Assembly: GCA_040755835.1 (NCBI GenBank)
Contig: JBFMAB010000122.1
Span: 107,180-146,503, forward strand
Reading direction: 5' to 3'
Source of the DNA: Myxococcota bacterium
GTDB taxonomy: Bacteria > Myxococcota > Myxococcia > Myxococcales > Myxococcaceae
Length of the DNA stretch: 39,324 nucleotides
The notes under the pieces are model-generated. The model was not told the DNA's origin, did not search any database, and worked only from the letters and a program-made list of their open reading frames with translations. Positions 7,961-31,661 of this stretch are shown one piece after another. The translations under genes were made by a program, and so were the position numbers. The first letter of the stretch is position 1. Each line of letters starts with the position of its first letter.

Positions 7961-8050
7961 CAGACCCCCGACTACCACGCGGCCTCTCGTGTAGGAAAAA
8001 TCAAGGACCTTTCGCCGCTTGTCGTGGTCCGTAATCCGAAGTCGGTTGCC

Positions 8051-8878: not shown

Positions 8879-8981
8879 GCCGGTTCGAAGCGAAGGGTCC
8901 CGGTTGGACGGGTGGGGTGGAAACCTCGCCTGTCCAGCCACTGTCAGGTGACGTAAACGGCGCCCGAAGCGGGGAGCCGAG

Positions 8982-8999
8982 GGAGCGGGTGCCCGCTCC
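8982..8999 (+). promoter_or_regulatory. Perfect hairpin (GGAGCGGG/CCCGCTCC) immediately upstream of the first exbD/tolR-like RBS
   Basis: The palindrome ggagcgggtgcccgctcc ends 14 nt before the ATG at 9014 and abuts the GAGGAG RBS. Confidence 0.25.
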
Positions 9000-9013
9000 A
9001 CGAGGAGACGACG

Positions 9014-9499
9014 ATGGCCGGCGGTATGGACTTGGGTGGTGGTGGCGGCAAGGGCAAGAAGCCCCTCGACACGACCATCAACCTGGTGCCCTTCATCGAC
9101 CTCATGGCGGTCACGATCGTCTTCTTGATCATGACGGCCGTGTGGACGCAGCTGGGCCGCCTCCAGGTGTCGCAGTCGGGGCAGAACGCGTCGGAAGAGC
9201 AGCCGCAGGACCCGAACCAGCTTCAGCCGGTGACGCTGCTCATCACCGAGAAGGAGCTCAAGCTGTCGGTCGGCGGCGCGCAGCTCGAGCCGATCCCCAT
9301 TACGCGTGACGACAAGCAGCGCGTGGACGTGGCGCGGCTCATCGACAAGCTCAAGGAGCTGAAGACGCAGCAGCCTGAGCAGAACGCCATCACCGTCTCG
9401 ACCGAAGACAACGTGAGGTACGAAGACCTGGTGCGGGTCATCGACACGTGCATCGGCGGCCAGTTCCCCTCCGTGTCGGTTTCGCCGGCTTCGTCGTAA
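9014..9499 (+). CDS. ExbD/TolR-family protein (AglQ/TolR-like)
   Basis: 161 aa. A single N-terminal TM plus the ExbD signature (INLVPFIDLMAVTIVFLIM) and a periplasmic domain. Confidence 0.8.
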   Translation: MAGGMDLGGGGGKGKKPLDTTINLVPFIDLMAVTIVFLIMTAVWTQLGRLQVSQSGQNASEEQPQDPNQLQPVTLLITEKELKLSVGGAQLEPIPITRDDKQRVDVARLIDKLKELKTQQPEQNAITVSTEDNVRYEDLVRVIDTCIGGQFPSVSVSPASS

Positions 9500-9527
9500 G
9501 CGGCAACGAAAGCGAGTTCACAAGACC

Positions 9528-10112
9528 ATGGCCATCATCACGCCAGGCAAGCGGTTCGGTAAGCGGCTGATGCACTCGAAGATCTTCGGCCACCACGCCA
9601 TGTTGGGGAAGAAGTCCGTCTTCTCCGACCTGAACGTGACGCCGCTGGTCGACATGTTCGTCATCCTCGTGCTCTTCCTCATCGCCAACTTCTCGGCGAC
9701 GGGTGAAATCCTCGCGATGTCGAAGGACATCCAGCTGCCCGAGGCGGCGAACACCGACGAGCTGCAGCTCGCGCCGGTCGTGCAGGTGTCGACGGAGTCG
9801 GTCATCGTGTCCGGCATCATGATTGGCCGGGTCGACGACCTGACCCGCGAGGACTACCTCAACATCCCCGCGCTCGAGGAGAAGCTGCGCGAGATGAAGA
9901 AGGAGTTCGAGGATCTGCACAACGCGGCCAACGACTCCGGCGCCTTCAAGGGCGACGTGAACATCCAGGCGGACAAGCAGGTGCAGTTCCGCATCATCAA
10001 GCGCGTGATGTTCAGCTGCGCCTCGGCCGGCTACGGCAACATCGCCTTCGCGACGATGGCTGCGGGCAGCGAAAACGGTGCGAAGAAGGAAGAGACCGCG
10101 TCCCGCGACTGA
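9528..10112 (+). CDS. ExbD/TolR-family protein, second paralog (AglS/TolR-like)
   Basis: 194 aa. ExbD signature (LNVTPLVDMFVILVLFLIANF). Same strand, 28 nt downstream of the previous gene. Confidence 0.8.
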   Translation: MAIITPGKRFGKRLMHSKIFGHHAMLGKKSVFSDLNVTPLVDMFVILVLFLIANFSATGEILAMSKDIQLPEAANTDELQLAPVVQVSTESVIVSGIMIGRVDDLTREDYLNIPALEEKLREMKKEFEDLHNAANDSGAFKGDVNIQADKQVQFRIIKRVMFSCASAGYGNIAFATMAAGSENGAKKEETASRD

Positions 10113-10138
10113 CTCGCGCTTCGCTGACGCCAGACGAG

Positions 10139-10168
10139 CCCCGGGCGCCCCACGGCCCCGGGGTTTTT
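10139..10168 (+). terminator. Rho-independent terminator candidate after the TolQ-TolR-TolR module
   Basis: GC stem CCCCGGG (10139-45) / CCCGGGG (10157-63) with an 11-nt loop, followed by TTTTT (10164-68). It lies 27 nt after the stop at 10112. Confidence 0.45.
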
Positions 10169-10221
10169 CGTCTTCGCGAAGGGCGCGGTAGAACCCGGCC
10201 ACACCCACATCGGAGCAGCCC

Positions 10222-10545
10222 ATGCTCGCCCTCACCCTGTCCGTGCTGTTGTCCGCAGCGCCCGCGCAGCTCACCATCGAGGTGCAGCCCGAGGGCTGCG
10301 TGGTGAAGGTGGACGGGAAGAAGGCCGGCACCGGGGCGAAGCCCTTCACGGTGAAACTCAAGCCCGGGAAGCACACCATTCGCGTCGAATACAGGGGTGA
10401 CGCCACCACCGAGGAGCTGGCGCTGAAGGCGGGCGAGAAGAAGACGTGGAAGTGGGAGTTCACCGGCGTTTCGCCGGAGCCCCAGAAGGAGGAGGCCGAG
10501 AAGGCCGAGGCCGGCCCGGCCGGCGAGGTGGCCCCGTCGCCTTGA
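10222..10545 (+). CDS. Small secreted PEGA-domain-like protein
   Basis: Signal peptide, then a PEGA-like beta motif (IEVQPEGCVVKVDGKKAGTGAKPFTVKLKPGKHTIRVE) and a Lys/Glu-rich tail. Confidence 0.5.
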   Translation: MLALTLSVLLSAAPAQLTIEVQPEGCVVKVDGKKAGTGAKPFTVKLKPGKHTIRVEYRGDATTEELALKAGEKKTWKWEFTGVSPEPQKEEAEKAEAGPAGEVAPSP

Positions 10546-15763: not shown

Positions 15764-15975
15764 GAGGGGGAGATTTAGCCCCAGACGCCCCCGCCCTCCA
15801 GTTTGCTCCGGCTGTTGCCAGGCCGGGCTTCAGGAGCGCAAGGCGCCGCGCGCGCGGGCGAAGCTGCACGTCGCGTCCGAGGCAGCCTGAGTCCACAGGC
15901 CTGTCGCACCTGCACCCACCGCCCGAGAAGAACGCGACGCGCCGGGGCGGGCGTGTAGACTCGCAGCGGTTTCGC

Positions 15976-18009
15976 GTGGCCACGCCCAGCTTCATCGCCC
16001 CGACCAGTCCGCTCGATCGGCGGCGGCTCGGGAAGTATGAGGTGCTGTGCCGTCTGTCGACGGGCGGCATGAGCGAGATCTACCTCGCGCACCAGACGGG
16101 CCTGGCGGGCTTCAACAAGTTGGTGGTGCTGAAGACCATTCTCCCCGACATCGGCGGGGAAGAAGACTTCGTGCGCATGTTCCTCGACGAGGCCCGCACG
16201 ACGGCGGCCTTCAACCACCCGAACATCGCGCAGGTGTACGAGCTGGACACGGACGACGGCCAGCTCTTCATGGCGATGGAGTTCGTCCAGGGTTGCACGC
16301 TGGTGGAGATGGCGCGGGCCTGCCGCGCGGCGCGCGAGGCGATCCCCATCGGCTTCACGCTGGCGGCGGTGCGTGACACCGCGCTGGCGCTCCACTACGC
16401 GCACACCTTCACCGACGCGCGCGGCCGCAAGCAGATCGTCATCCACCGCGACGTCGCCGAGAAGAACATCATGGTGACGTACGAGGGCGTCACCAAGCTG
16501 CTGGACTTCGGCATCGCCAAGGCGCTGGGGCGCTCGGGCCGCACCGGCGTGGGCATGGTGAAGGGGACGAGCGGCTACATGTCCCCCGAGCAGATCCGCG
16601 GCGAGCCGCTCGACGGGCGCAGCGACATCTTCGCGTTGGGGGTGGTGGCCCACGAGTGCCTCACCGGCCTGCGGCTCTTCCACGGCAAGTCGCCCGAGGA
16701 AGGGATGATGGCGGCGCTCAAGGAGAACGTCGTCCCGCCGTCGAGGTGGAACCCGCAGGTGCCGCCGGCGGTGGACGCGGTCGTGCTCAAGGCGCTGCAG
16801 CGCGATCGCGAAGCGCGCTTCGCCACGGCCCTGGAGTTCGCGCGCGAAATCGACCGCGTCGGCCACGGGCTCATCTGGCACCCGGAGCAGAGCGGCGAGC
16901 TGGTGCTGAAGTACTTCAACGACCGCCGTGCCGAGACGCGCCGGTTGCTCGAGTCGTCCGTCAACCAGGAGGTGACCGGCGAGATCCGGGTGAAGTCCAT
17001 CATCCAGAAGGTGCGCGCCACCGCGTCGACGCCGGGCACGGACGCTCCGAAACCCGAGCAGGCCACGCCCGCGCCCACCCCCGTCATCAGCGCGGCGCTG
17101 CGGCGCCCGACGCAGAACATGCCGCCGGCGACGCAGGGCACGGCGCCGAACATCAACCCTGTCACGCTGCGGCAGCCCGACCCGACCACCTCGCCGGCGC
17201 GCCCGAAGGTGCTGCGCGCCGACCCGCCGCCGGCCCCCGCGCCGCGCGCCATCGACCTGACGCCGCGGGCGAGCGAGTTCGACGACGACGAGGCCGACGC
17301 GAAGACGATTCCCGCGGCGGCGCTGCCCGACGAGGTCCGCGAGCTCCGCAAGCGCATGCTGGAGGCCGCTCAGGCGAAGAAGGCCTCGCCCACCGGCACC
17401 ACCACGCCCGTCGCTGCGTCGGTGCGAACGAGCCGTCCGGACACCAGCTCCATCACCGAGCCCACGCCCGTGCAGCCGCCGGCGCCGGTGGTGGCCTCCG
17501 CCGCCCGCGCCAACCTCGCCACGGAGCCGGAGCGCCGGCCGGTGCTGCCGGTGACGGACGCGAGCCCGGCGCTCAAGGTGCCACCGCGCGACACCGACGG
17601 CGACACGCTCAGCATCACCAACCGCGGGTCGCCGCCCACCGACTGGGACGACGACGACGTGGGCGCGCGCACCACCATCGCCCGCCCCGACGAGGTGCTG
17701 GGGCAGATCAAGAAGCAGCAGTCCGACGACGACCTCCGCGCGACGCAGGAGCGCGAGCCCTCGTCGGTGTACCTGCGCGAGGTGCGCTGGCGGAGCCGCG
17801 CGTTGATGGTGGTGCTGGTGGCGATGGCGCTGCTCGCCGTCGTGGGCATCCTGGTGCTGCTGGAGGTCATCCCCCTGGGCGCCGCCGACGAGCCGCAGGC
17901 GGAAGCAATACCCGCCGTCGTCCAACCCACGGCAGACACCGCGGCCGAGGCGCCGCCCGAGCCGCTGCCCGACGTCCCCGCGCCCACACCCGCGCCGAAC
18001 AAGAGGTAG
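15976..18009 (+). CDS. Hanks-type Ser/Thr protein kinase with a Pro-rich linker and a C-terminal TM segment
   Basis: Kinase subdomains: VLK (Lys), HRD catalytic loop (HRDVAEKN), DFG, SPE. Long Pro/Ala-rich region. TM (ALMVVLVAMALLAVVGILVLL). Confidence 0.85.
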   Translation: MATPSFIAPTSPLDRRRLGKYEVLCRLSTGGMSEIYLAHQTGLAGFNKLVVLKTILPDIGGEEDFVRMFLDEARTTAAFNHPNIAQVYELDTDDGQLFMAMEFVQGCTLVEMARACRAAREAIPIGFTLAAVRDTALALHYAHTFTDARGRKQIVIHRDVAEKNIMVTYEGVTKLLDFGIAKALGRSGRTGVGMVKGTSGYMSPEQIRGEPLDGRSDIFALGVVAHECLTGLRLFHGKSPEEGMMAALKENVVPPSRWNPQVPPAVDAVVLKALQRDREARFATALEFAREIDRVGHGLIWHPEQSGELVLKYFNDRRAETRRLLESSVNQEVTGEIRVKSIIQKVRATASTPGTDAPKPEQATPAPTPVISAALRRPTQNMPPATQGTAPNINPVTLRQPDPTTSPARPKVLRADPPPAPAPRAIDLTPRASEFDDDEADAKTIPAAALPDEVRELRKRMLEAAQAKKASPTGTTTPVAASVRTSRPDTSSITEPTPVQPPAPVVASAARANLATEPERRPVLPVTDASPALKVPPRDTDGDTLSITNRGSPPTDWDDDDVGARTTIARPDEVLGQIKKQQSDDDLRATQEREPSSVYLREVRWRSRALMVVLVAMALLAVVGILVLLEVIPLGAADEPQAEAIPAVVQPTADTAAEAPPEPLPDVPAPTPAPNKR

Positions 18010-18337
18010 CGCGAAAGTCCTCCCCGCGCCTGAAGCCCCGAGCCACGCGTTGCTCGCGCCCGGGGGTCCGCGGCCGAGCGACGAGCGCTGCGGGCCGCCG
18101 GGGAGCGGCGCCACCACCTCGCCCATGCCCCCGACGTGCAGTGGCTGACGGCCGGCGTGCGGCGGTGAGGGCGGGTACGGACCACACGTGCGCGCCGGGG
18201 CTCGAACCTCTCCGGGCAGAGCGCCAGGGGCGGCACCGGCACCGCGGTGCCCGGGCCGACGGACGGCGCCCGGGCGCTTCGCGTCCTTCGGGGCGGAGAG
18301 GAGCGACCGCACGGGCGCCGCGCGGCACGACGCGCCC

Positions 18338-18899
18338 ATGCGGACGCGCGTCTTCGGGCTCTCGACTGGCCTCGCGCTGTCCGTGCTGTCCCTCGCCGCG
18401 TGCGGGGCCGCCGCGCCGGCGTGCGCCGGCGACGCGTGTGCGCGCGAGGCCGCCGGCTGCGCGCACACGGCGGGCACCTGCGCGATGAATTCCTCCGGCT
18501 CGTCGTGCACGCAGGCGTGCGAGGGCCCGGCGGCCTGCGCGCTGGACCTCGGCGGCGCCGCGTCGGCGACGTGTATCTGCACGGCGAGCTGCACCGGCAC
18601 CGCGGGCGACGACGTCACGCTCCTGCAACAGCAGCTCGACGTGCTCGGTGAACGCCGGCGCGCGCCTCACTGCCACTTGCACCAGCTCGTCGAAGGGCAC
18701 CTTCCAGGGCGGGTCCGGCACCGGCGTGCGCTGCAGCAACAGCGCGGAGTGCGCACTCGCGTGCACCGGCATGAGCTGCGCCATCCTCTACAACGACAGC
18801 GCGAGTTTCACGTGCACGGGTGCGGCCTGCGGCATCACCTGCCGCGCGGGCCACGCCACGACGTGTCCCGACGGCCGGCTGGTGTGTGGCACGTCGTGA
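18338..18899 (+). CDS. Cys-rich secreted lipoprotein, apparently interrupted by a 1-nt frameshift near 18608-18616
   Basis: Signal peptide and lipobox (LSVLSLAAC). The Cys-rich frame 0 runs to about 18613 (..CTASCTGTAGDD). A similarly Cys/Ser/Thr-rich frame +1 continues to the stop at 18899 (..TCTGAACGITCRAGHATTCPDGRLVCGTS). Frame 0 beyond 18613 and frame +1 before 18600 both look noncoding (Arg-rich). Confidence 0.35.
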
Positions 18900-20728: not shown

Positions 20729-22720
20729 TCACCGCCGCCGTGCACCGGCGAGCAGGTGGTCCGCGTTCTCCGCGTACACCTTCCGCAGCACCTCGGGCGG
20801 CAGACCCAGGCCGGAGATGCGCCACCGGCCCTGGATGGGCGTCGGGTGGGCGAAGTCGCGGTCGCGCGTCTCGAAGAAGCGCCAGGTGGCGGTGAAGAAG
20901 TGGGACACGTCGGCGGGCGTGGGCGGCGTGGCGCCGGTGCTGCCCAGCATCAGCTGCGCGTCGGTGGGGCCCACGCCGAGGTCGGTGCCGAAGAGGATGC
21001 GGTCCTGGTAGCGGACGAAGAGGTCGCGGAGCGCCTCGGGCGGCTGTCGGCCCAGCTCCGGCACGCGCGCCGCGGTGTCGACGTACAGGTTGGGCAGCGC
21101 GTCCAGCATCGCGGCGACGGCCCACGGGTCCTCCGGGTCGTTCCCGAAGTGCACGCCGATGAAGGTGGTGCGCGGGTGCCGCGCGACGCGGCGGCCGTAG
21201 GCGGCGAAGAGCGCGTCCCACGACGGGACGTCGGCGCCCGCGTAGCGCCACCCCGGGTGCGCGGAGAGCTCGTCGATGCGCTCATTGGCCTCGGTCGCCG
21301 GCTGCCAGAAGGCCTTCGGGTCGCCAGTGTGAATCGAGATGGGCAGCCCCAGCTCGCCGGCCTTCTCGAAGAGCGGGTCGAGGCGCGGGTCGTCCACCCC
21401 CAGCAGCGTGCCGTCCGGCGCGCGCGCGCCGAGTCCGAGGGACTTGAAGAACTTGAGCCCCTTCGCGCCGAGCCGCTGCGCCGCCTCCGTCTGCGCCACC
21501 AGCTCGTCGATGGAGAGTTCGCCCCTGGCGAAGGCGCCCACCGGCGGGTTGGCGAACACGACGACGCGGCCGTTCGTGCTGCGGGCGGCCTCCACCGAGG
21601 CCTCGAGGCCCTCGCCCGGCCAGCCGCCCGACAGGTTGATGGCGACGTCGATGCCCCACGCGTCCATCAGCGCGACGAGGCGAGGCACGTCGGCGGGCGA
21701 GACGTGCACGTGCGCGTCCACCTTGCGGTAGCGCGGGGCGCCATCGGCGGTGGCCTTGTCGGGAGGCAGGTAGATGCGCTCGCCCTGGTCCAGCACCACC
21801 CACTCGCGCGACGCATCGTCGGCGAGGAAGAGCGCCTTCGCGGCGTCGATGTCGAGGCCGGGCATCTTCGCGAGGCCCTTCGCCCAGGGCTGGAAGAAGT
21901 TGTCGTAGTGCGTCGGGAGGACGCGGCGCGGCTTCGCTTCCGCGAGCAGGCCGTCCACCTTGGCCTTCGTCTGCGCTTCACCGGTGACGCCGACGATGAG
22001 GGTGGCGGCGGGCGGCGCGTTCAGCTCGCCGGGCGCGAAGGTGCTGGTGGGGTGGAACCACAGCGAGGTGCCGTTGGCCTCGAGGCGGTAGAAGAGCGTC
22101 TCGTCGAGGGCGTACTCGAAGAAGCGCAGCGGGCCCGCGGTGGGCGAGACGACGCCGCCCATGGGGTGCGAGATGCCGGCGATGTCGGCATGGCGGGTGC
22201 CGCGCACGTCGATGGTGAAGGTACCCACCGTGAAGTGGTCGCCGGGCTTCACGAGGCGGGTGCGCCCGGCGGGGACGCCGCGGCTCAGCGCGAGGTTGAC
22301 GGTGGACTGCGAGCCGATGACGAGCGCACCGGTGCGCAGGGCAATGGCCGGCACGTCGAGCGCATGGTCATGGTGCGTGTGGTTGACGAGAATGGCGTCG
22401 GCCTTCGGGCACTCCTTCGCGCCGAGGGCTTCGTCCGGCGACAAGGGAGCGAGCAGCGCGAGCGGCGGCGGGCGCGTCGGCGTCGGGTCGAGCAGCAGCG
22501 TGGTGGTGCCGTCGCTCACCTCGTAGCCGGAGACGCCGAGGTAGCGGACGCTGAGGCCGTCGGTTCGCGGCGTGCGGAGCGCGGCAGGTCCACGGTGTGC
22601 GGCGGGGACGGTCCACGGCACGTGGCGCACGGCGACGAGGAAGACGGCGACGGCCAGCGCGGGGAGAGCGAGCAGCGCGGCGAGCGCGACGAGGAGGCGG
22701 CGGCGGAGGCGGGGTGTCAC
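20729..22720 (-). CDS. Membrane-anchored fusion of an MBL-fold metallo-hydrolase domain and an amidohydrolase (TIM-barrel) domain
   Basis: GTG start (VTPRLRRRLLVALAALLALPALAVAVFLV is the signal/anchor). MBL motif HTHHDH, then an amidohydrolase metal site (VDAHVHV) and a conserved C-terminal HxGxxD-like region. The upstream 748 codons of the 1411-aa ORF were rejected. Confidence 0.65.
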   Translation of the reverse strand: MTPRLRRRLLVALAALLALPALAVAVFLVAVRHVPWTVPAAHRGPAALRTPRTDGLSVRYLGVSGYEVSDGTTTLLLDPTPTRPPPLALLAPLSPDEALGAKECPKADAILVNHTHHDHALDVPAIALRTGALVIGSQSTVNLALSRGVPAGRTRLVKPGDHFTVGTFTIDVRGTRHADIAGISHPMGGVVSPTAGPLRFFEYALDETLFYRLEANGTSLWFHPTSTFAPGELNAPPAATLIVGVTGEAQTKAKVDGLLAEAKPRRVLPTHYDNFFQPWAKGLAKMPGLDIDAAKALFLADDASREWVVLDQGERIYLPPDKATADGAPRYRKVDAHVHVSPADVPRLVALMDAWGIDVAINLSGGWPGEGLEASVEAARSTNGRVVVFANPPVGAFARGELSIDELVAQTEAAQRLGAKGLKFFKSLGLGARAPDGTLLGVDDPRLDPLFEKAGELGLPISIHTGDPKAFWQPATEANERIDELSAHPGWRYAGADVPSWDALFAAYGRRVARHPRTTFIGVHFGNDPEDPWAVAAMLDALPNLYVDTAARVPELGRQPPEALRDLFVRYQDRILFGTDLGVGPTDAQLMLGSTGATPPTPADVSHFFTATWRFFETRDRDFAHPTPIQGRWRISGLGLPPEVLRKVYAENADHLLAGARRR

Positions 22721-22900
22721 GCGCGGCCTTGTGTCGGAGTGACCCGCCCGGCGCCAGCCAGCGCGCGCAGAACCGTCGGAGGCGTCGGGAATCGCGCGGG
22801 CGTGGGCGCGTGGGCTTGCGTGCGCGCGGTGACTCGGGCCAGATGCGCGTCCGTCCGCGGGCGGCCGGCGCCTGCGCGTCTTGTTTCCCGGGGAGTCGCC

Positions 22901-24058
22901 ATGACCACCAACGCCTTCCGCTCCGTGCTGCTCGCGGCCTTCGCGGCCGTCGCGTTCGCCGCGTGTTTCTCGGCCGTGCCCGAGGGCGCGACCTGTACCA
23001 CCGACGCCGACTGCGGCAGCGGCAAGGTGTGCGCCAACGGCGCGTGCACGACGGTGTCCGACGACGGCGGCGCGGGTGGCGGGACGGGTGGCGGCACGGC
23101 CGGTGGCGCGGGTGGCGGTGACGACGCGGGCCAGGGCGGCGGCGCGGGTGGTGGAGACGACGCGGGCCAGGGCGGCGGCGCGGGTGGTGGCACGGCGCCG
23201 GACGGGGGCATGCCGGACGCGGGCGTGTGCGGCTGCATGAGCGTGCTGGGCTGCCAGCCGGGCGACTCGCCGCTGGCGTGCGGGACGGGTGGCGCGGGCA
23301 CGATGTGCGTGAACTGTGGCATCGGCGAGCAGTGCGTCAACGGCGCGTGCGTGATGGCGGCCTGCGGGCCGATGACGTGCAACGGCTGCTGCACGAACAA
23401 CTTCTGCGTGACGCCGACGCAGCAGAACCGATTGGCGTGCGGGTCGAATGGCGCGGCGTGCATGGGCTGCGGCATGGGCCAGCAGTGCACGAACGGCGCG
23501 TGCGTGACGCCGCCGCCCTGCGACGCGACGACGTGCCCGACGGGCTGCTGTCAGAACGGCCAGTGCCAGCCGGGCAACACCAACCGCTCGTGCGGTACGG
23601 GTGGCGCGGCGTGCATGCCGTGCGGCCTGGGGAACCAGTGCGTGGCGGGCGCGTGCTTGACGCCGGACGGCGGCGCGGTGACGCCGGTGGCGGCGGGCTC
23701 GCCGTGCACGTCGTCGATGGGGTGTCAGCCGCCGCAGGGCGCGTTCTGCATCCGGGAGTCCGCGTTCGGGCAGCCGTCTGGCTACACGGGCGGCTACTGC
23801 TCCGCGCAGTGCGGGACGATGCAGCCGTGCGCGTCGGGCGTGTGCGTGACGGAGCCCCTCTTCGGGGTGAGCGGCAGCACCTGCCGGGCGAGCTGCACGG
23901 GGCCGGGCCTGGGGCAGTCGACGTGCCGGACGGGCTACGTGTGCGTGGGCATCGCGGGCGCCACGACGGGCTACTGCCGGCCGAACTGCAACAATGGCGG
24001 CCTGGCGGCGTGCCCGACGGGGCAGATGTGTGACGCGATGACGGGCTACTGCCAGTGA
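22901..24058 (+). CDS. Secreted Cys-rich tandem-repeat lipoprotein
   Basis: GGGAG RBS, signal peptide and lipobox (AVAFAAC), a Gly-rich spacer, then about three 44-aa repeats of TCxxGCCxNxxCxxxxxNRxxCGxxGAACMxCGxGxQCxxGACV, and a Cys-rich C-terminal domain. Confidence 0.7.
   Translation: MTTNAFRSVLLAAFAAVAFAACFSAVPEGATCTTDADCGSGKVCANGACTTVSDDGGAGGGTGGGTAGGAGGGDDAGQGGGAGGGDDAGQGGGAGGGTAPDGGMPDAGVCGCMSVLGCQPGDSPLACGTGGAGTMCVNCGIGEQCVNGACVMAACGPMTCNGCCTNNFCVTPTQQNRLACGSNGAACMGCGMGQQCTNGACVTPPPCDATTCPTGCCQNGQCQPGNTNRSCGTGGAACMPCGLGNQCVAGACLTPDGGAVTPVAAGSPCTSSMGCQPPQGAFCIRESAFGQPSGYTGGYCSAQCGTMQPCASGVCVTEPLFGVSGSTCRASCTGPGLGQSTCRTGYVCVGIAGATTGYCRPNCNNGGLAACPTGQMCDAMTGYCQ
23099..23198 (+). repeat. 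Direct 42-bp DNA repeat encoding the Gly-rich spacer (GGDDAGQGGGAGGG, two copies)
   Basis: gacgacgcgggccagggcggcggcgcgggtggtgg is repeated in tandem. Confidence 0.6.
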
Positions 24059-24096
24059 GGGGTGGCGGCGCGTGCCCGACGCGCCCGCCTCAGGCT

Positions 24097-24795
24097 CTAC
24101 GCCGACGCGTCCGGCGACGCAGCCGCCGGCTGCTTGCTCTCCATCACCTTCTTCGACACGAACACGTACACCCCGAACGCCACGAGCAGCGCGGGAATCA
24201 TCCACACGAAGTTCTTCCGCACCATGTCCGTGCCGCTGTGCACGAGCTCCGCGTACGTCATCGTCGCGGTGCTCTTCCCAATCACGTACCCGATGACGGT
24301 CAGCACCGTCACCCACAGGCCGGCGCCGAGCCCCGTCCACAACGTGAAGCTCTTGAGCGGCATCCTCGCGATGCCCGCGGGGATGGAGATGAGCTGGCGG
24401 ATCGCTGGCAGCAGCCGGCACACGAACGTCGCGCCCGCGCCATAGCGCCGGAACAGCTCCTCGGCCCGGCGCAGCTTGGGCGGCGGCAGCAGGAAGTACT
24501 TCCCGTACTTCTCCAGGAACGGTGTGCCGAGCCAGCTGAACAGGAAGTAGTTCACGTACGCGCCCAGCAGCGAGCCCGCCGTGCCCGCGAGGACGGCCAC
24601 CGTCGCGTCCATCACCGGGTTGCCCAGCGTCAGGCCCCCGCGCGCCGCGAGGAACCCCGCGGGGATCATCACCACCTCGCTCGGGAACGGGATGAAGGAG
24701 CTCTCGATGGTCATGAACAGCACCACCAGCAAAAACCCCCACGTCGGCGCGTAGGCGGCGAGGGTCTCGATGTGGGCGATCAACATCTCGGTCAC
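24097..24795 (-). CDS. DedA-family (SNARE-associated / TVP38) membrane protein
   Basis: DedA signature (FIPFPSEVVMIPAGFLAA...G, RLLPAIRQLISIPAG) and multiple TMs. Confidence 0.8.
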   Translation of the reverse strand: MTEMLIAHIETLAAYAPTWGFLLVVLFMTIESSFIPFPSEVVMIPAGFLAARGGLTLGNPVMDATVAVLAGTAGSLLGAYVNYFLFSWLGTPFLEKYGKYFLLPPPKLRRAEELFRRYGAGATFVCRLLPAIRQLISIPAGIARMPLKSFTLWTGLGAGLWVTVLTVIGYVIGKSTATMTYAELVHSGTDMVRKNFVWMIPALLVAFGVYVFVSKKVMESKQPAAASPDASA

Positions 24796-24860
24796 GGGTC
24801 TGGCCTCCGGTCGCGGGGCGGATTACCACCATTCCCTCGGCATGCGAAACGAGGGCTGTC

Positions 24861-25520
24861 ATGGGTGAGGCGATCGACCGGGTGCGCGCCGCCGTGCGCC
24901 GGCTCAAGGTGTTTCCGCTGCCGTCCGTCGTCCTGCTCCCCGGCACCGTCCAGCCCCTCCACATCTTCGAGCAGCGCTACCGTGACATGGTGAAGGCCGC
25001 CCTCGAGTCCGACGGCGTCTTCGCCATGGCCCAGGTCCTCCCCGGCCAGGAAAACCGCCTCGCCGGCTCGCCCGAGCTCGAGCCCATGCTCTGCGCCGGC
25101 GTCATCGGCATGCACGAGCAGCTCGAGGACGGCCGCTACAACCTCGTCCTCGTCGGCGTCGCCCGCGTCCGTCTGGTGCGCGAGCTGCCGCAGGTCGCCA
25201 GCTACCGCGAGGTCGAGGCCGAGCTCGTCGAGGATCCGCCCGTCGACTCCGAGGAAGAGGTTCCTCTCCGCCAGGCCGTGCTCGAGCTCATCGCCCGCGT
25301 CCCCGACGAGGTGGGCGACAAGGTGGCCACCGTCACCAGCCGCCTGCACGGCGGGCAGCTCGCCGACGTCGTCGCCGGCACCATTCTCCAGGAGCCCGCC
25401 CAGCGCTTCGAGGTCCTCCTCCAGACCGACGTCCGCGCCCGCCTCCGCGAGGTCACCGACGAGGTCATGCAGGTCGTCGCCCGCCTGAAGCCGAAGAAGC
25501 AGAAAGGGCTGCTCCATTGA
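24861..25520 (+). CDS. Lon N-terminal (LON substrate-binding) domain protein
   Basis: The N-terminus FPLPSVVLLPGTVQPLHIFEQRYRDMV matches the Lon N-domain start (PLFPLxxxVLFPGxxLPLxIFExRY). About 220 aa, with no ATPase or protease domain. Confidence 0.7.
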   Translation: MGEAIDRVRAAVRRLKVFPLPSVVLLPGTVQPLHIFEQRYRDMVKAALESDGVFAMAQVLPGQENRLAGSPELEPMLCAGVIGMHEQLEDGRYNLVLVGVARVRLVRELPQVASYREVEAELVEDPPVDSEEEVPLRQAVLELIARVPDEVGDKVATVTSRLHGGQLADVVAGTILQEPAQRFEVLLQTDVRARLREVTDEVMQVVARLKPKKQKGLLH

Positions 25521-25570
25521 CCTCGGGCGCCAGCCTTGAATTCCCCGGTTTTTCGGGCGTTGATCGGTCC

Positions 25571-26317
25571 GTGACGCGCCACTTCCACCAGTTGGGCCTC
25601 CGGGCCGCCCTGTGGGCCTTCGTCGCCCTGGCCCTGCCCGCGTGGGGCGCCGACGGCGACTGGGAAACCGTCCTCGAAGGTCCCATCACCATCAAGAACC
25701 GCGCGGTGCCCAACAGCGCCGTGAAGGAGATTTGGGCCGAGGGCGACATGGCCGCGCCCGTGCAGGACATCCAGGACACGCTGATGAAGCCGGAGCTGTT
25801 CCGCAGCTTCATGCCGTACCTGAAGGACTCGCGGGAGATCAGCAAGAAGCTCGAAGACGGCAGCGTGTACGTCTACACGCTCATCGACCTCCCGGTGGTC
25901 GGCAAGCGCGACTACATCGTGCGCGTGTGGCTGCGCGAAGGCGTCAAGCCGGACGGCACCGGCACCTTCCGCAACGAGTGGAAGGCCGAGCCCGACTACC
26001 TCCCGCTGCGCTCCAACATCACTCGCGTGCGCCTCAACACCGGGGGCTGGACCATCACCCCCGTCGGTGACGGCTCGAAGAGCCACGTCGTGTACCAGTT
26101 CGCCGTCGACCCCGGCGGCTGGGTCCCGTCCTTCGCCGTCAACATGGGCAACGAGAAGGGCGTCGGCGACACCTTCCGCGCCGTGGAGAAGGAAGCGCAG
26201 AGGCGCCGCGACGAGCGCCTCGCGAAGCAAGCCAGGGCCGCGAAGGAAGCGAAGGCGGCCGAGGCGAAGGCCGAAACCCCCAGCGCCACGCCGGCCCCCG
26301 CGGTCGCCGCGCCCTGA
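25571..26317 (+). CDS. Secreted START/SRPBCC (Bet v1-like) domain protein with a Lys/Ala/Glu-rich tail
   Basis: Signal peptide ([20 protein letters not shown]) and a START-like core ([21 protein letters not shown]...GGWTITP...[16 protein letters not shown]). A GTG start was chosen; the TTG at 25517 overlaps the upstream gene and is the alternative. Confidence 0.55.
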
Positions 26318-26469: not shown

Positions 26470-27636
26470 ATGATCAAGGACTACCTCTTCACCTCCGAGT
26501 CGGTCACCGAGGGGCACCCGGACAAGATCTGTGACCAGATCTCCGACGGTGTCGTCGACGCGCTGATCGCGAAGGATCCCCGCGCCCGCATCGCGGTGGA
26601 GACGCTGGTGAAGACGGGCCTCGCCATCGTGGCCGGCGAGGTCACCACCAACGCGTGGATCGACATCCCCACCATCGTCCGCAAGACCATCACCCACATC
26701 GGCTACACCGACTCGTCGATGGGCTTCGACGGCCACACCTGTGGCGTCATGGTCGCCATCGAGGGCCAGTCGCAGGACATCGCCCGCGGCGTCGACGAGA
26801 AGGGCGGCAAGGAGCAGGGCGCGGGCGACCAGGGCATGATGTTCGGCTACGCGTGCAACGAGACGCCGGAGCTGATGCCCGCGCCCATCCAGTACGCGCA
26901 CACGCTGACCCGCAAGCTGTCCGAGGTGCGCCGCAAGAAGCACTCCTGGCTGCGCCCCGACGGCAAGTCGCAGGTCACCGTCGAATACAAGGACGGCAAG
27001 CCCGTGCGCATCGACGCGGTGGTCGTGTCCACCCAGCACGCCGAGGACGTCAGCAACAAGAAGATCAAGGACGTCGTGATGGAGGAGGTCATCAAGGCCT
27101 CGCTGCCCGCGAAGCTGATGGACAAGAAGACCAAGTTCTTCATCAACCCGACCGGGCGCTTCGTCGTCGGCGGCCCGATGGGCGACTCGGGCCTCACGGG
27201 CCGGAAGATCATCGTCGACACCTACGGCGGCATGGGTCGTCACGGCGGCGGCGCCTTCTCGGGCAAGGACCCGTCGAAGGTCGACCGCTCGGCGGCGTAC
27301 ATGGGCCGCTACATCGCGAAGAACGTGGTGGCCGCGGGCCTCGCGAGCCGCTGCGAGCTGCAGGTGTCCTACGCCATCGGCGTGGCCGAGCCGGTCAGCG
27401 TGATGGTGGAGACGTTCGGCACCGCCACGGTCGCCGAGGACCGCATCGCCCGCGCGGTCCGCGAGGTCTTCGGCCTGAAGCCCCGGCAGATCATCGAGCA
27501 CCTCGACCTGCTCAAGCCCATCTACCAGCGCACCGCCGCGTACGGCCACTTCGGCCGGCCGGAGTTCAGCTGGGAGAAGACGGACAAGAAGGACGCGCTC
27601 CGTGACGCCGTCGGCGCCAAGGTGAAGGCGGCCTGA
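26470..27636 (+). CDS. metK: S-adenosylmethionine synthetase
   Basis: MetK motifs: [51 protein letters not shown]. 388 aa. Confidence 0.95.
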
Positions 27637-27653
27637 GCCGACCGGAGTCGTCG

Positions 27654-29003
27654 ATGACGAAGGGCCGGCAGGGCGCATCGCACGCAGGCTCGCTGGCGGC
27701 GCTGGCCGCCTCGCTGGACACGGCCAAGCGCGCGCTGCCGGCGTCGGCGGCCGCGTCGAAGTCGAAGGACGCGCTGCGCGAGGCGCTCCGCGAGAAGCCG
27801 CCGGCCCGGGTCGAGGCGGAGGCGCCGTCTGTTTCCTCGCACGACGCGAAGTCCGCCGTGGCGTCGGGGGCGCGTGAGGCGAAGCCGACCACTGGGGCGC
27901 GGGCGCGGGACGCGAAGGCGAGCGCTTCGTCGAGTCGGGGGCCGTCGACGGCTGCACGCGGCGCGAAACCGGGCCCCGCTTCCAGCCGGGGGACTTCCGG
28001 GCCCGGGCACGACGCGGAGGGGAGCGCAACTGCGAGTCGGGGACCGTCGGCCCCTGCGCGCGACGCGAAGCCGAGCCCCGCGCCCAGCCGGCGAACGTCC
28101 GCGCCGGCGCGTGACGGGAAGCCCGGCGCCGCCTCCAGCCGACATGCCCGCGAGCCTGCGCGGGAAGCCAGGCCCAGCGTCCCTGCCGGCCGAGCGGCGA
28201 CGGCGCCGCCGCGCGACGAGAGCCGTCCTTCCAGCCGAGGTGCTTCCCCGCCCGCGCGCGAGGAGAAGCGCAGCGCCGCCGTCAGCCGCAGCGCGCCGGC
28301 GCCGGTGCGTGACGCGAAGGCGAGCGCCAGCGCGGGCCGCGTCGAGCCGAGGTCCGCCGCGTCCGCGCGAGCCGGTTCGGCGCCGCCCGTCCCGGCGCTC
28401 TCGTCTGCGGTTCCGCGCGCCGCAGCGCTGGCGTCGATGGCGCGCGCGCCGAGCCCTGTGCCCGCGCGCACGCCCGTCTCCCGACCGGTGGGCTCGGCGG
28501 TGTCGCCCCCGGTGGGGAACTCGCGCCGCCGCTACCCGCGGGCGGAGCTCACGGTGAAGGCGCGGCTCTCGCTCGCCGACGACCCGTCGCGCGTCTTCGA
28601 GGCGTCGCTGCCGACGGTGAACATCTCCGTGGGCGGGCTCTTCCTCGAGTCCAGCTTCTTCCTGAAGCTGGGCACCAGGCTGCTGGTGCACCTCTCGCTC
28701 CCGCCGAAGGGCCGCGAGGTGACGGTGAAGGGTGAAGTCGTGCGCGTCGAGTCGTCGGACGCCGGCCCGTCGGGCTTCGCCCTGCGCTTCACCGAGTACC
28801 TCGACGGCAGCGAGGTGGCGCTCGCCACCCACTTCCTCTCGCCGGTGCTGCGCGAGTTCATCAGCAGCTACGCGAAGCAGCACCGCTTCGACGCGAGCGC
28901 CGAGTACCTGGCGCACACCGCGGACGTGCTGGCCGCCTGGGAATTGAAGAAGGCCGAGCTCGGCGGCGACGTCTGGCAGATGACCTGGCGCGACGCGCGA
29001 TGA
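27654..29003 (+). CDS. PilZ-domain protein with a long N-terminal Ser/Ala/Arg/Pro low-complexity repeat region
   Basis: C-terminal PilZ motifs RRRYPRAEL (RxxxR) and NISVGGLFLES (D/NxSxGG). About 290 aa of degenerate ARDAKP/SRGPS repeats. Starts 18 nt after metK. Confidence 0.7.
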   Translation: MTKGRQGASHAGSLAALAASLDTAKRALPASAAASKSKDALREALREKPPARVEAEAPSVSSHDAKSAVASGAREAKPTTGARARDAKASASSSRGPSTAARGAKPGPASSRGTSGPGHDAEGSATASRGPSAPARDAKPSPAPSRRTSAPARDGKPGAASSRHAREPAREARPSVPAGRAATAPPRDESRPSSRGASPPAREEKRSAAVSRSAPAPVRDAKASASAGRVEPRSAASARAGSAPPVPALSSAVPRAAALASMARAPSPVPARTPVSRPVGSAVSPPVGNSRRRYPRAELTVKARLSLADDPSRVFEASLPTVNISVGGLFLESSFFLKLGTRLLVHLSLPPKGREVTVKGEVVRVESSDAGPSGFALRFTEYLDGSEVALATHFLSPVLREFISSYAKQHRFDASAEYLAHTADVLAAWELKKAELGGDVWQMTWRDAR

Positions 29004-29821
29004 CGCTGTTTCAGGCCATCGTGCTCGGCCTGGTGCAGGGCCTCACCGAGTTTCTGCCCATCTCCTCCACCGCCCACCTGAAAATCGTCCCGGCGCTGCT
29101 CGGCTGGGGTGACCCGGGCGCGGCGTACTCCGCCGTCATCCAGCTGGGCACGGTGGGCGCGGTGCTGGTCTACTTCGCGAAGGACCTCGGGCGCCTGGCG
29201 CGCGGCTTCGTGAAGGGGCTCGTGGACCGGCGCCCGTGGGACAGTGAGGAGTCGCGGCTCGCGTGGTTCGTCGGCCTGGGCACGCTGCCCATCGGCGTGC
29301 TGGGGCTCGCCTTCAAGAAGTCCATCGAGACGACATTCCGCTCGCTGTACGTCATCTCAGGCTCCCTCATCGCGCTGGCGGTGGCGCTCTTCGTCGTCGA
29401 GCGCGTCGCGAAGCACGTCCGCACGCTGAAGGAGATGACGCTCAAAGACGGGCTCCTCATCGGCGCGTGGCAGGCGCTGGCGCTCATCCCCGGAAGCTCG
29501 CGCTCGGGGACCACCATCACCGGCGGCCTGTCGCTGGGCTTCACGCGCGAGGACGCGGCGCGCTACTCCTTTCTCCTCTCGATTCCCGCCACCACGCTGG
29601 CCGGGTTGTTCGAGTTGAAGCACCTGCTGGAGGCGAGCGAGCGGCCGTCGACGCTCGTGCTGGTGGTGGGCACCGCGGTGTCCTTCGCGTCGGGCCTGGC
29701 GGCGATTCACGGCCTGTTGCGCTTCCTGCGCACGCGCTCGACGCTGGTGTTCATCGTCTACCGCGTGGCGCTGGGGCTGCTCCTGCTCGGCCTGTTGACG
29801 GCGGGCGTCCTGCAGCCGTGA
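29000..29821 (+). CDS. uppP: Undecaprenyl-diphosphate phosphatase (BacA/UppP)
   Basis: The N-terminus MTLFQAIVLGLVQGLTEFLPISSTAHL and the PGSSRSG motif are diagnostic. ATGA overlap with the PilZ gene. Confidence 0.9.
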   Translation: MTLFQAIVLGLVQGLTEFLPISSTAHLKIVPALLGWGDPGAAYSAVIQLGTVGAVLVYFAKDLGRLARGFVKGLVDRRPWDSEESRLAWFVGLGTLPIGVLGLAFKKSIETTFRSLYVISGSLIALAVALFVVERVAKHVRTLKEMTLKDGLLIGAWQALALIPGSSRSGTTITGGLSLGFTREDAARYSFLLSIPATTLAGLFELKHLLEASERPSTLVLVVGTAVSFASGLAAIHGLLRFLRTRSTLVFIVYRVALGLLLLGLLTAGVLQP

Positions 29822-29878: not shown

Positions 29879-30475
29879 GTGGAGGCCGTCTCTTCTCTCG
29901 TCAGCGATGCCGCCGGACGTGACTTCTTCGAGCGCCTGCGCGCGCGCCTGCGCACGGTGCCCTCGAAGACGCTCGAGGCGCCGGGCCTCACGCTGAAGGA
30001 GGCGGCGGTGCTGGCGCCGCTCTTCTGGAGGAACGGCGAGCCGTGGACGTACCTCACGCAACGGCCGATGACGCTGCGCAAGCACCCCGGGCAAATTTCC
30101 TTTCCTGGCGGCGGGCGGGACGCGAGCGACCTGACGCCGCTGCACACCGCGCTGCGCGAGACGCGCGAGGAGCTCGGCCTCCCGGTGGAGCGCGTCGACG
30201 TGCTGGGCATGCTGGGGGCCATGCCCACCATCACTTCGTACTGGGTGACGCCCTTCGTTGGCGTGGTGCCGGCCGAGGCGCCGCTCTCGCCCAACCCGGG
30301 AGAGATCGCGCAGGTGCTGGAGGCGCCGCTGTGGCGGCTCCGGCGGGAGAAGCGGCGCATCTACGAGGCGGACCGCGACGTCTACGTGTGGGACGCGGGC
30401 CGAGACGTGGTGTGGGGCGCCACCTGGCGCATGCTGCACCAGCTGCTCGAGCACGTGGAGGCCGTGGGTCGCTGA
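29879..30475 (+). CDS. Nudix hydrolase, CoA-pyrophosphatase-like
   Basis: Nudix box (GQISFPGGGRDASDLTPLHTALRETREELGL) and an upstream LAPLF-type CoA-pyrophosphatase motif. Confidence 0.75.
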   Translation: MEAVSSLVSDAAGRDFFERLRARLRTVPSKTLEAPGLTLKEAAVLAPLFWRNGEPWTYLTQRPMTLRKHPGQISFPGGGRDASDLTPLHTALRETREELGLPVERVDVLGMLGAMPTITSYWVTPFVGVVPAEAPLSPNPGEIAQVLEAPLWRLRREKRRIYEADRDVYVWDAGRDVVWGATWRMLHQLLEHVEAVGR

Positions 30476-30621
30476 CGCCTGCGCCGCGCCAGGCGAGGAC
30501 GGCGCCGACGCGCGGCCGTCCGTGGCCCGCCGGGTCCGCGCAGCCACCGCGGGGCCGCGGGCGGTCGGCGGGAAGCGTCGCCCCGCGACGGCGCGGGCTG
30601 CGTGGCGCGGGCGGGCACTGC

Positions 30622-30709
30622 CCTCGCTGCGGCGGAGCGGGCGCTTTCGAGGCGTCTGTCACCTGGGACCGGCGACACGCCCTGCCGTCCGCGTCCTCGC
30701 TGCGGCGGA
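30622..30709 (+). repeat. 15-nt perfect direct repeat (CCTCGCTGCGGCGGA, two copies 73 nt apart) in an unassigned GC-rich segment
   Basis: Copies at 30622-30636 and 30695-30709. The flanks are partly similar (..gcggagcgggcgc / ..gcggaccggcgcc). Confidence 0.3.
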
Positions 30710-30740
30710 CCGGCGCCGGCGACGCGTCCCCATCACGTCC

Positions 30741-31661
30741 GTGGCGGCGCCACGCCGGGCCCCCGGTCCCTCGCCGCATCGGGCTGCCTCGTGGCACTCT
30801 CCCGTCGCGACGTCCGGCGACGGCGAGCTTACGCGGGCGGTCGAGGCGGCCCGTGCCCGCGTCGACGCGCTCGAGGCGGAAGGTGAGGCCGCGCAGCGCC
30901 AGGCCCGTGCCCCGTGGGACGCGAAGCTCGCCGCCGCGCGCGCTGAGGTCGCCCGACTGGAGGCCGAGGTGAAGGCGCTGGCCGCGCGCGCCGAGGCGCT
31001 GGAGGACGAGGCGCTGCGCGTTCGCCTGGGCGCGGGCGGGAGCGGGCCCACCGCCTGGTGGGCGCGAACCGTGTTCGTCGTCGTGACCTGCCTCGGCAGC
31101 ACGGCGTGGCTGGTGGAGCTGCACGGGCCGGTGGCGCTGGCCGCGGCGCTCGCGCTGCCGGCCGCCTTCGTCGTCGGGCGGTGGTGGGGGCGCGCGGTGG
31201 CTGACGAACGCGCCCTCCGCGACCAGCTCGAGGCGCTGCAGGCGCGCGCCCGCGTTCTCGAGGCCCGCGCGCAGGCCGGCGTGGACGAGGCGGCGGTGGC
31301 GTTGGAGTACCAGGCGTTGCTGGCGGACCTCGACGCGCGACGTGCGGCCCTCCTGTCGCGGCGAGAGGCGCTGGCCACCGACGTCGCGCGCGCCGAGGAG
31401 GTGCTGGGGTACGCCCTCGAGCAGCAGGCGGCGGAGATGGGGGACGAGGCGTCGCCGCGGCATGGCTCCGACACCGAGCAATTCGTCGGCTGGGTCGTGG
31501 GCCTCGCGGGCGCCGCGCTGGCGGTCGTCGTGCCCGCGCTGCTGGGCGCCGGCCGACCGCTGGTCGAGCAGACGTTGCTGGCCGTGGGCGGCCTTTCGGT
31601 GGCGGTCGGGGTCGCGGCGCGCCACGCGGTGCGCAGCGGCCGCGGGCGGCGCGCGCGCTGA
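30741..31661 (+). CDS. Coiled-coil membrane protein (two TM hairpins separated by Ala/Arg/Glu-rich coiled coils). Start unresolved.
   Basis: A convincing coding frame from about 30800 (GELTRAVEAARARVDALEAEGE...) with TM pairs (TVFVVVTCLGSTAWLV / VALAAALALPAAFVVG and FVGWVVGLAGAALAVVVPALL / LLAVGGLSVAVGVAA). There is no in-frame ATG. GTG candidates are at 30741 and 30522. Confidence 0.45.
   Translation: MAAPRRAPGPSPHRAASWHSPVATSGDGELTRAVEAARARVDALEAEGEAAQRQARAPWDAKLAAARAEVARLEAEVKALAARAEALEDEALRVRLGAGGSGPTAWWARTVFVVVTCLGSTAWLVELHGPVALAAALALPAAFVVGRWWGRAVADERALRDQLEALQARARVLEARAQAGVDEAAVALEYQALLADLDARRAALLSRREALATDVARAEEVLGYALEQQAAEMGDEASPRHGSDTEQFVGWVVGLAGAALAVVVPALLGAGRPLVEQTLLAVGGLSVAVGVAARHAVRSGRGRRAR

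Follow-up and report, generated by a model that had tools for sequence, protein, structure and literature searches.

The 39,324-nt window analyzed here (GenBank assembly GCA_040755835.1, contig JBFMAB010000122.1, positions 107,180 to 146,503, from a Myxococcota bacterium) contains, between metK and uppP, a gene whose product is a genuine PilZ-domain protein with the canonical motifs for binding of cyclic di-GMP (c-di-GMP). Alignments support that this 449-amino acid (aa) protein is a member of the Myxococcota PilZ family that includes MXAN_2649 of Myxococcus xanthus, and that it carries an unusually long, repeat-built, and disordered N-terminal arm.

The Pfam PF07238 match over aa 291 to 388 has an E value of 1.5e-13 and a score of 51.4 bits compared to the gathering cut-off of 22.5 bits. 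Both c-di-GMP motifs are present, i.e., RxxxR as R292 to R296 (nt 28527-28541) inside the RRRYPR sequence of aa 291 to 296, and [D/N]hSxxG as N323-I-S-V-G-G328 (nt 28620-28637). The gap between R296 and N323 is 26 residues, and the canonical range is about 20 to 30. In an AlphaFold model of aa 240 to 449 built with 93 sequences, a β-barrel with the six-stranded PilZ fold spans residues ~296 to 383 at predicted local distance difference test (pLDDT) values >90. The original prediction, made from the sequence alone, placed a PilZ domain at the C terminus of this protein. The domain is real, and the motif spacing, the Pfam match, and the modeled barrel are all compatible with a PilZ fold; its position at the extreme C terminus did not hold, because a conserved 61-aa helical tail (aa 389 to 449) comes after it. 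This tail (LATHFLSPVLREF...ADVLAAWELKKAELGGDVW) matches the ~60-aa family pattern FLxPxLxxF ... D.LAAWEL and is modeled as three helices at residues 386 to 409, 416 to 435, and 440 to 446 with pLDDT values of 90 or higher. It is the most conserved segment of the family, with W429 and E430 being near-invariant (alignments A1, A2, and A4).

The same residues are kept over long distances. Among 33 divergent members with 24 to 47% identity, there is no variation at R296, S325, and G328 and almost none at R292 or in the W-E pair of the tail. When 1.8 billion representatives were scanned with HMMER, 237 matches resulted, and the combination of PilZ domain and tail is present in ~43 clusters at 50% identity. 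Structural neighbors of the modeled core include MrkH, the BcsA/CeSA PilZ domains, YcgR, VCA0042, PA4608, and PlzA, while a profile search of PDB sequences with the core alignment matched nothing. That the motifs contacting the ligand are so well conserved speaks for genuine c-di-GMP binding, and it is probable that the protein binds this ligand.

The homolog in M. xanthus DK1622 is a 230-aa protein encoded at positions 5917 to 6609 of the extracted locus (L066). We identified it as MXAN_2649 because published deletion primers map onto it: 2649_A, 2649_B, and 2649_C map to positions 5408, 5929, and 6583, which are exactly the C terminus of RodA, the first codons of the homolog, and its last codons, respectively. 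The window protein and MXAN_2649 are 43% identical over 146 aa (tblastn, E = 2.9e-29). MXAN_2649 is among the 24 PilZ genes that were catalogued and deleted in M. xanthus (Kuzmich et al. 2021, PMC8316039), and in our literature search it was named only in that study. The MXAN_2649-like subfamily is already catalogued, and the window protein is a fairly ordinary addition to it. The two genes lie in different contexts (metK-PilZ-uppP versus PBP2-rodA-(mgtE)-PilZ-trx-ccsA), and the window gene may be either an ortholog or a paralog of MXAN_2649. The original prediction was correct on the gene itself but silent on the C-terminal tail, on a conserved N-terminal motif, and on the M. xanthus homolog.

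The region ahead of the PilZ domain consists of this N-terminal motif, a linker, and a conserved pre-PilZ segment (Table 1). The motif has the consensus MAR..K..SLxALAxxLDTRKRxLP (alignments A1 and A3) and includes a short amphipathic helix predicted by AlphaFold2 at aa 14 to 20 (pLDDT ~60). The linker (aa 35 to 252) is composed of 25% Ala, 17% Ser, 13% Arg, 13% Pro, and 5% Lys; with 40 Lys and Arg residues against 20 Asp and Glu residues, it has a net charge of +20 and an isoelectric point (pI) of 11.6, and the pI of the whole protein is 11.1. About eight to nine degenerate 17-aa units of the type PARDAKPSxAxSRxxSA span about aa 83 to 233 (nt 27900-28352). In the pre-PilZ segment, R255, A258, S261, and P266 are nearly invariant (alignment A1), and both AlphaFold2 models contain a short helix at aa 255 to 262 (pLDDT ~60). 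Over aa 1 to 290, pLDDT values are 45 to 62, and the only predicted structure consists of short helices at residues 14 to 20, 38 to 46, and 255 to 262. Thus, the low-complexity N terminus described in the original prediction is real, as judged from the repeats, the biased composition, and the predicted disorder of aa 35 to 252. A signal peptide was rejected as a reading of the N-terminal motif because the family consensus places Lys and Asp in the would-be hydrophobic core (KSLTALAKSLDTRKR).

Evidence on whether this arm is translated came from related loci, for which we scanned one genome per GTDB species and obtained 70 loci. Thirty-two of these have the N-terminal motif; at all 33 loci including the window, the motif lies just after metK and is in frame with the PilZ domain with zero stop codons between the two, over an intervening length of 92 to 483 residues. 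Tandem DNA repeats are present in the linker at 24 loci with periods from 15 to 156 nt, every one of which (24/24) is a multiple of three, and the repeat units differ by lineage (SKSDVA x18, AGAAPKA x17, EKPAAKVAVVEKLAAKPV x6, and others). Across 106 homologs, the conserved N-terminal motif is followed by a variable linker and then by the conserved core (alignments A1 and A3). At the window gene itself, a Shine-Dalgarno-like GGAG (27644-27647) is located 6 nt ahead of the ATG. Because the motif is in frame without stops at 33 of 33 loci and all repeat periods are multiples of three, these data show that the linker is coding and that the start at 27654 is right. The linker evolves fast, through in-frame repeat expansions that arose independently between its two conserved anchors. 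The GC content at third codon positions (GC3) is lower in the N-terminal part of the gene (0.87) than in the C-terminal part (0.97); at aa 91 to 180, GC content at second positions (GC2) exceeds GC3 as a result of Ala, Pro, Arg, Gly, and Ser codons, and the GC3 profile by itself is ambiguous. Nucleotide comparison of the linker with those of the two closest relatives (L001 and L070) gave 35 to 47% mismatches at all three codon positions and gaps that are not reliably in threes, i.e., these sequences are too diverged.

The order metK, PilZ gene, and uppP is found at 46 of the 70 loci, usually with a Nudix gene next at variable distance. All 46 are from uncultured metagenome-assembled genomes labelled Archangium sp. 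or Myxococcaceae bacterium, and their PilZ cores are 55 to 82% identical; at three further loci, metK or uppP lies past the contig end or was undetected. In related loci, the metK ahead of the PilZ gene has 70 to 93% identity, the PilZ gene usually begins 0 to 90 nt after metK, and 26 loci have the same −3 (ATGA) overlap between the PilZ gene and uppP as the window. Upstream, the two closest relatives have LON-substrate-binding and START-like genes in common with the window. At five clade-1 loci, uppP is 1.3 to 4.2 kb off, and in some metK is 3.7 kb off. The gene coordinates and the stop/start overlap given in the original prediction were borne out, with the spacer to metK measured as 17 nt. 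The metK-PilZ-uppP junctions leave no room for a terminator. A consensus scan found neither a sigma-70 promoter nor an intrinsic terminator on the + strand and is uninformative for myxobacterial promoters. An Rfam search of the whole window, including the region upstream of metK (e.g., for an S-adenosylmethionine riboswitch), gave zero matches. Because the gene order is kept and the ATGA overlap recurs at 26 loci, the three genes are very likely cotranscribed in the window, and translational coupling of the PilZ gene to uppP is very plausible in this clade. The tight linkage to metK and uppP that had been proposed is in agreement with these counts and with the terminator being undetected. We note that one protein from an ENA contig (P0061, 475 aa) has a MetK C-terminal domain (PF02773) fused to the PilZ protein; a frameshift or a gene-calling artifact in a metagenome contig is the most likely cause, and the adjacency of the two genes is independently shown.

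Outside this clade, the neighbors change. Cultured Myxococcaceae (Myxococcus, Corallococcus, Pyxidicoccus, Hyalangium, Archangium, Cystobacter, Vitiosangium, and Aggregicoccus) have a homolog of 170 to 300 aa that is 38 to 45% identical. In Myxococcus and Pyxidicoccus, it is on the same strand directly after mrdA-rodA and before PPK2 and ccsA-like genes, with no mgtE at this place. In loci of the Archangium/Hyalangium type (L074, L077, and L080), the order is mreC-mreD-PBP2-rodA, mgtE (−), PilZ gene, thioredoxin gene (−), an open reading frame (ORF), ccsA-like gene, hemA, and hemC, such that an mgtE on the opposite strand sits between rodA and the PilZ gene; one locus is without PBP2-rodA. Distant members adjoin pyrG (twice, L071 and L072), a GidA-family gene together with a tyrosine recombinase gene, VWA/PARP genes, or NlpC/P60 genes. 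No neighbor is conserved family-wide among the contexts compared. We did not retain adjacency to rodA as a cell wall marker, which is weakened by the opposite-strand mgtE insertion and by the nonenvelope contexts of the distant members. The metK/uppP context is kept within one uncultured clade only and is weak evidence for function; the suggestion that this context tells about function is poorly supported, since the same PilZ family sits in other contexts elsewhere. Separately, a START/Polyketide_cyc2-like gene (L072, 6177-6623, −) lies beside the distant member P0281 on a 7-Mb JGI contig, and a START-like gene is also present in the window at 25517-26317 (+), just upstream of metK; this may be coincidental.

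Table 1. Coordinates of the PilZ-family gene, its parts, its neighbors, and the MshEN gene in the window
Feature	Position (nt)	Strand	Basis
PilZ-family gene, 449 aa including disordered N-terminal arm	27654..29003	+	ORF listing; 106 homologs
Conserved N-terminal motif, aa 1-34, core S13-LAALAASLDTAKRALP	27654..27755	+	Alignments A1/A3
Disordered basic Ala/Ser/Arg/Pro-rich linker, aa 35-252	27756..28409	+	Composition, pLDDT 45-55
Tandem DNA repeat, 51 nt x4.8 / 102 nt x1.9	27897..28141	+	Tandem Repeats Finder
Conserved pre-PilZ segment, aa 253-290, consensus RAAALxSLQRxPSPxPxRxP	28410..28523	+	Alignment A1
PilZ β-barrel domain, aa 291-388	28524..28817	+	Pfam PF07238
Family-specific C-terminal tail, three helices, invariant DVLAAWEL (W429-E430)	28818..29000	+	
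metK, S-adenosylmethionine synthetase, 388 aa, upstream neighbor	26470..27636	+	Pfam S-AdoMet_synt_N/M/C, E 2.5e-42 to 2.7e-70
metK-PilZ intergenic spacer, 17 nt	27637..27653	+	Read from sequence
ATGA, stop of PilZ gene overlapping uppP start codon	29000..29003	+	Translational-coupling arrangement, sequence
uppP/bacA, undecaprenyl-diphosphate phosphatase, 273 aa, downstream neighbor	29000..29821	+	Pfam BacA E=6.2e-81
Nudix hydrolase gene, frequent further downstream neighbor	29879..30475	+	Pfam NUDIX E=1.6e-13
MshEN protein, 277 aa, little beyond MshEN domain (aa 64-153, E=7e-17), without attached T2SSE ATPase	7145-7978	-	

We favor, with moderate confidence, the reading that the protein is a cytoplasmic single-PilZ c-di-GMP receptor or adaptor, made up of the barrel, the three-helix tail with its AWE sequence, and a translated disordered arm, and encoded in a metK-PilZ-uppP cluster. 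c-di-GMP would be held between the RxxxR arm (R292-R296) at the linker-barrel junction and the barrel's NxSxxG face. On binding, this junction would become fixed, and the barrel and the helical tail, the latter being the likely output surface, would be presented differently with respect to the long tether. Together with the N-terminal helix, the basic tether may anchor the receptor to a partner or to a polyanionic surface, for which nucleic acid would be likelier than membrane. The linker, capped by a conserved amphipathic N-terminal helix of ~20 aa, grows and shrinks by in-frame tandem-repeat expansion, with units of 51/102 nt in the window. As to the target, association with nucleic acid is unlikely, and envelope enzymes are very improbable.

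Several observations weigh against this reading. PlpA was reported to lack c-di-GMP binding in spite of its conserved motifs (Kuzmich et al. 2021, PMC8316039); according to this precedent, motifs alone do not prove binding. In the same study, defects in motility or development were confined to the plpA, pixA, pixB, and pkn1 mutants, exopolysaccharide (EPS) was normal in all mutants, and deletion of MXAN_2649 caused no motility, EPS, or developmental defect (PMC8316039). In the AlphaFold2 model, the N-terminal helix is docked nowhere with confidence. The most divergent members of the clade (L042, L047, L048, and L039-L043) have 172 to 215 aa and lack both the N-terminal motif and the linker; the existence of such short members implies that the arm is accessory and dispensable for the core function. 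At +0.09 per residue, the window linker is no more than mildly basic, and its abundant Ser and Asp/Glu residues set it apart from the classical KKAPA DNA-binding tails of some distant members. Finally, internal promoters in metK or the PilZ gene are possible despite the empty consensus scan.

It is unlikely, but conceivable, that the protein is instead associated with the nucleoid or with RNA, with the basic repeats binding nucleic acid in a histone H1-like manner and c-di-GMP modulating this association. Many family members have a net-positive (+10 to +40) extension rich in Pro, Ala, Ser, Gly, and Thr, which is N-terminal in P0290, P0301, P0302, P0309, P0310, and P0324 and C-terminal in P0260, P0265, P0267, and P0271. 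Its occurrence at either terminus fits a position-independent function and suggests a generic tether or polyanion-binding role, which we assign to the window linker only tentatively. The extensions include KKAPAKKAPA (P0309) and KTKTKTK repeats, and the P0309 tail matches the histone H1-like Pfam family HC2 with 32.7 bits compared to a gathering score of 40, a subthreshold match that is compositional. The pI of the whole window protein is also in line with nucleic acid binding. Precedents for PilZ proteins linked to nucleic acid exist in CdbS and in PlzA and MrkH, the latter two being among the structural neighbors; PlzA, MrkH, and the CdbA/CdbS axis of M. xanthus are the relevant comparisons. 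However, the window linker is dominated by Ser, Ala, and Pro and contains 20 acidic residues, the window protein has no HC2 match at E ≤ 0.1 and is not an HC2/KAP-repeat protein, members without a linker exist, and AlphaFold predicts no DNA-binding fold. A literature search on PilZ proteins with disordered or lysine-rich tails showed nothing specific in its list of results.

A distinctly unlikely alternative is a degenerate, ligand-independent PilZ adaptor that acts as a constitutive scaffold, in which the motifs are kept and c-di-GMP is irrelevant. The PlpA precedent and the MXAN_2649 deletion without a c-di-GMP-related phenotype are in agreement with such a scaffold. Nevertheless, the invariance of R296, S325, and G328, and the near-invariance of R292, down to 24% identity point to selection on the ligand site.

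We regard as quite improbable a role in regulating the undecaprenyl-phosphate/lipid II cycle in response to c-di-GMP, in which the protein binds or tunes UppP in this clade and RodA/PBP2 in Myxococcus. The supply of carrier for the cell wall or for polysaccharides would thereby be tied to the second messenger. RodA releases undecaprenyl diphosphate, and UppP recycles it. This alternative would fit the ATGA coupling to uppP kept at 26 loci, the position of the homolog in Myxococcus and Pyxidicoccus, where it immediately follows mrdA-rodA in the same orientation, and a DedA/VTT-family gene ~4 kb upstream in the window. However, mgtE parts rodA from the PilZ gene in the Archangium/Hyalangium-type loci, and PBP2/rodA is lacking at one locus; the distant members lie beside pyrG, the GidA-family gene and integrase, VWA/PARP, or NlpC/P60; and uppP is distant in five clade-1 loci. 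In addition, the UppP active site faces the periplasm and PilZ is cytoplasmic. A literature search on PilZ with RodA, UppP, peptidoglycan, or the elongasome found, in the part of the results list that was read, no work evidently on such a link. The version in which the PilZ family couples the c-di-GMP level to this cycle via a fast-evolving basic disordered tether and an N-terminal docking helix that reach a membrane partner (UppP in this clade, RodA/PBP2 in Myxococcus) is highly improbable.

Least probable by far is that the arm is untranslated, with a real start near residues 262 to 290 and the long ORF being a high-GC artifact: although the high-GC (70 to 80%) DNA here is rich in long spurious ORFs (antisense ORFs of 464 aa and 301 aa cover the same region), GC2 exceeds GC3 at aa 91 to 180, in-frame ATG/GTG codons occur at residues 262 to 287, and short homologs begin just ahead of RxxxR, the in-frame, stop-free motif at all 33 loci, the GGAG, and the repeat periods in multiples of three rule against a noncoding region with a start near residue ~290, M262 is not conserved (L or Q in homologs), and the two closest relatives share the beginning MTKSRR...SLTALAASLDTRKRALPA. 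The antisense ORFs at 27522-28916 and 27566-28471 were rejected as real genes, since both failed a GC3-based coding filter; only a typical mirror-frame ORF (28532-28861) passed it.

With the favored receptor/adaptor reading, and provided that c-di-GMP binding is true, the protein would be one more orphan effector in organisms that have about two dozen PilZ proteins and few known c-di-GMP outputs. The analysis defines a recognizable subfamily consisting of a PilZ barrel, a three-helix AWE tail, and a basic disordered extension, with MXAN_2649 as a tractable member. The linker is a clean natural case of a bacterial disordered region evolving by independent in-frame tandem-repeat expansions between conserved anchors. 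Function should not be read from the metK/uppP neighborhood, and current understanding is not overturned.

Elsewhere in the window, the MshEN gene adjoins an ExbB/ExbD/ExbD/PEGA cluster (~8400-10545, +). Neither the scanned window ORFs nor six-frame motif searches yielded a GGDEF, EAL, or HD-GYP domain or motif. The statement that the window has two types of c-di-GMP receptors and no GGDEF/EAL protein is true; however, it carries no weight, because the window represents 39 kb of a probably multi-Mb genome (a clade relative has a 9.4-Mb contig). About 4.2 kb upstream of uppP lies a gene for a DedA/VTT-domain membrane protein (24097-24795, −; Pfam VTT_dom, E = 1e-21). Undecaprenyl-phosphate flippase activity has been proposed for some DedA-family proteins; if this one is a flippase, two carrier-lipid recycling genes would lie together, but DedA paralogs are numerous and the proximity may be coincidence. 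A 1,411-aa ORF (20729-24964, −) is a high-GC artifact at its 5′ end: only the C-terminal ~820 aa (about 20729-23200) match metallo-β-lactamase-fold and Amidohydro_2 domains, and the upstream part is unmatched and in part overlaps the DedA gene in another frame. Two sensor kinase genes (3150-5108 and 5098-7032, +) overlap by 11 nt, the first encoding GAF-PAS-PAS-HisKA without HATPase_c and the second PAS-HisKA-HATPase_c; this pair may represent a truncated kinase, a split kinase, or a sequencing frameshift. A Ser/Thr protein kinase gene (15976-18009, +; Pkinase, E = 1.5e-31) is opposed by a 947-aa ORF (15775-18618, −) without a Pfam match that is probably spurious. It is pure speculation that this kinase might in principle have the Ser-rich repeats of the PilZ protein's arm as a substrate. 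Downstream of the Nudix gene, a 467-aa ORF (30258-31661, +) with ~80% GC and no Pfam match is another candidate low-complexity protein, rich in Ala and Arg and with stretches resembling coiled coils (EALEAEGEAAQRQ...LEAEVKALAARAEALEDE).

Compared with known systems, the window protein resembles the canonical solved PilZ domains of MotI/YpfA (5vx6), Alg44 (4rt0), PA0012 (8u0i), PP4397 (3kyf), and YcgR (5y6g) at only 15 to 27% identity, and all of these lack both the AWE tail of three helices and a long disordered arm built from repeats. The NCBIfam family TIGR02266 (gmx_TIGR02266), a paralogous PilZ-like domain family of Myxococcus, gave a partial match over the barrel (E = 3.6e-11, 43.1 bits compared to a cut-off of 68.7), and by this NCBI criterion the window protein is not a member. 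As in the Lys-Ala-Pro tails of histone H1-like/HC2 proteins, the window linker is repetitive, proline-rich, and net positive, and some distant family members carry KKAPAKKAPA; in contrast to those tails, its repeat is Ser/Arg-rich with many acidic residues and much less basic. The closest comparison is with MXAN_2649. Both proteins have the PilZ core, the three-helix DVLAAWEL tail, and a basic Pro/Ala-rich N-terminal extension, and each is annotated merely as a PilZ domain-containing protein. MXAN_2649 differs in its shorter length, with an extension of ~70 aa that lacks the SLxALAxxLDTRKR motif, and in lying after mrdA-rodA and before the PPK2 gene instead of between metK and uppP.

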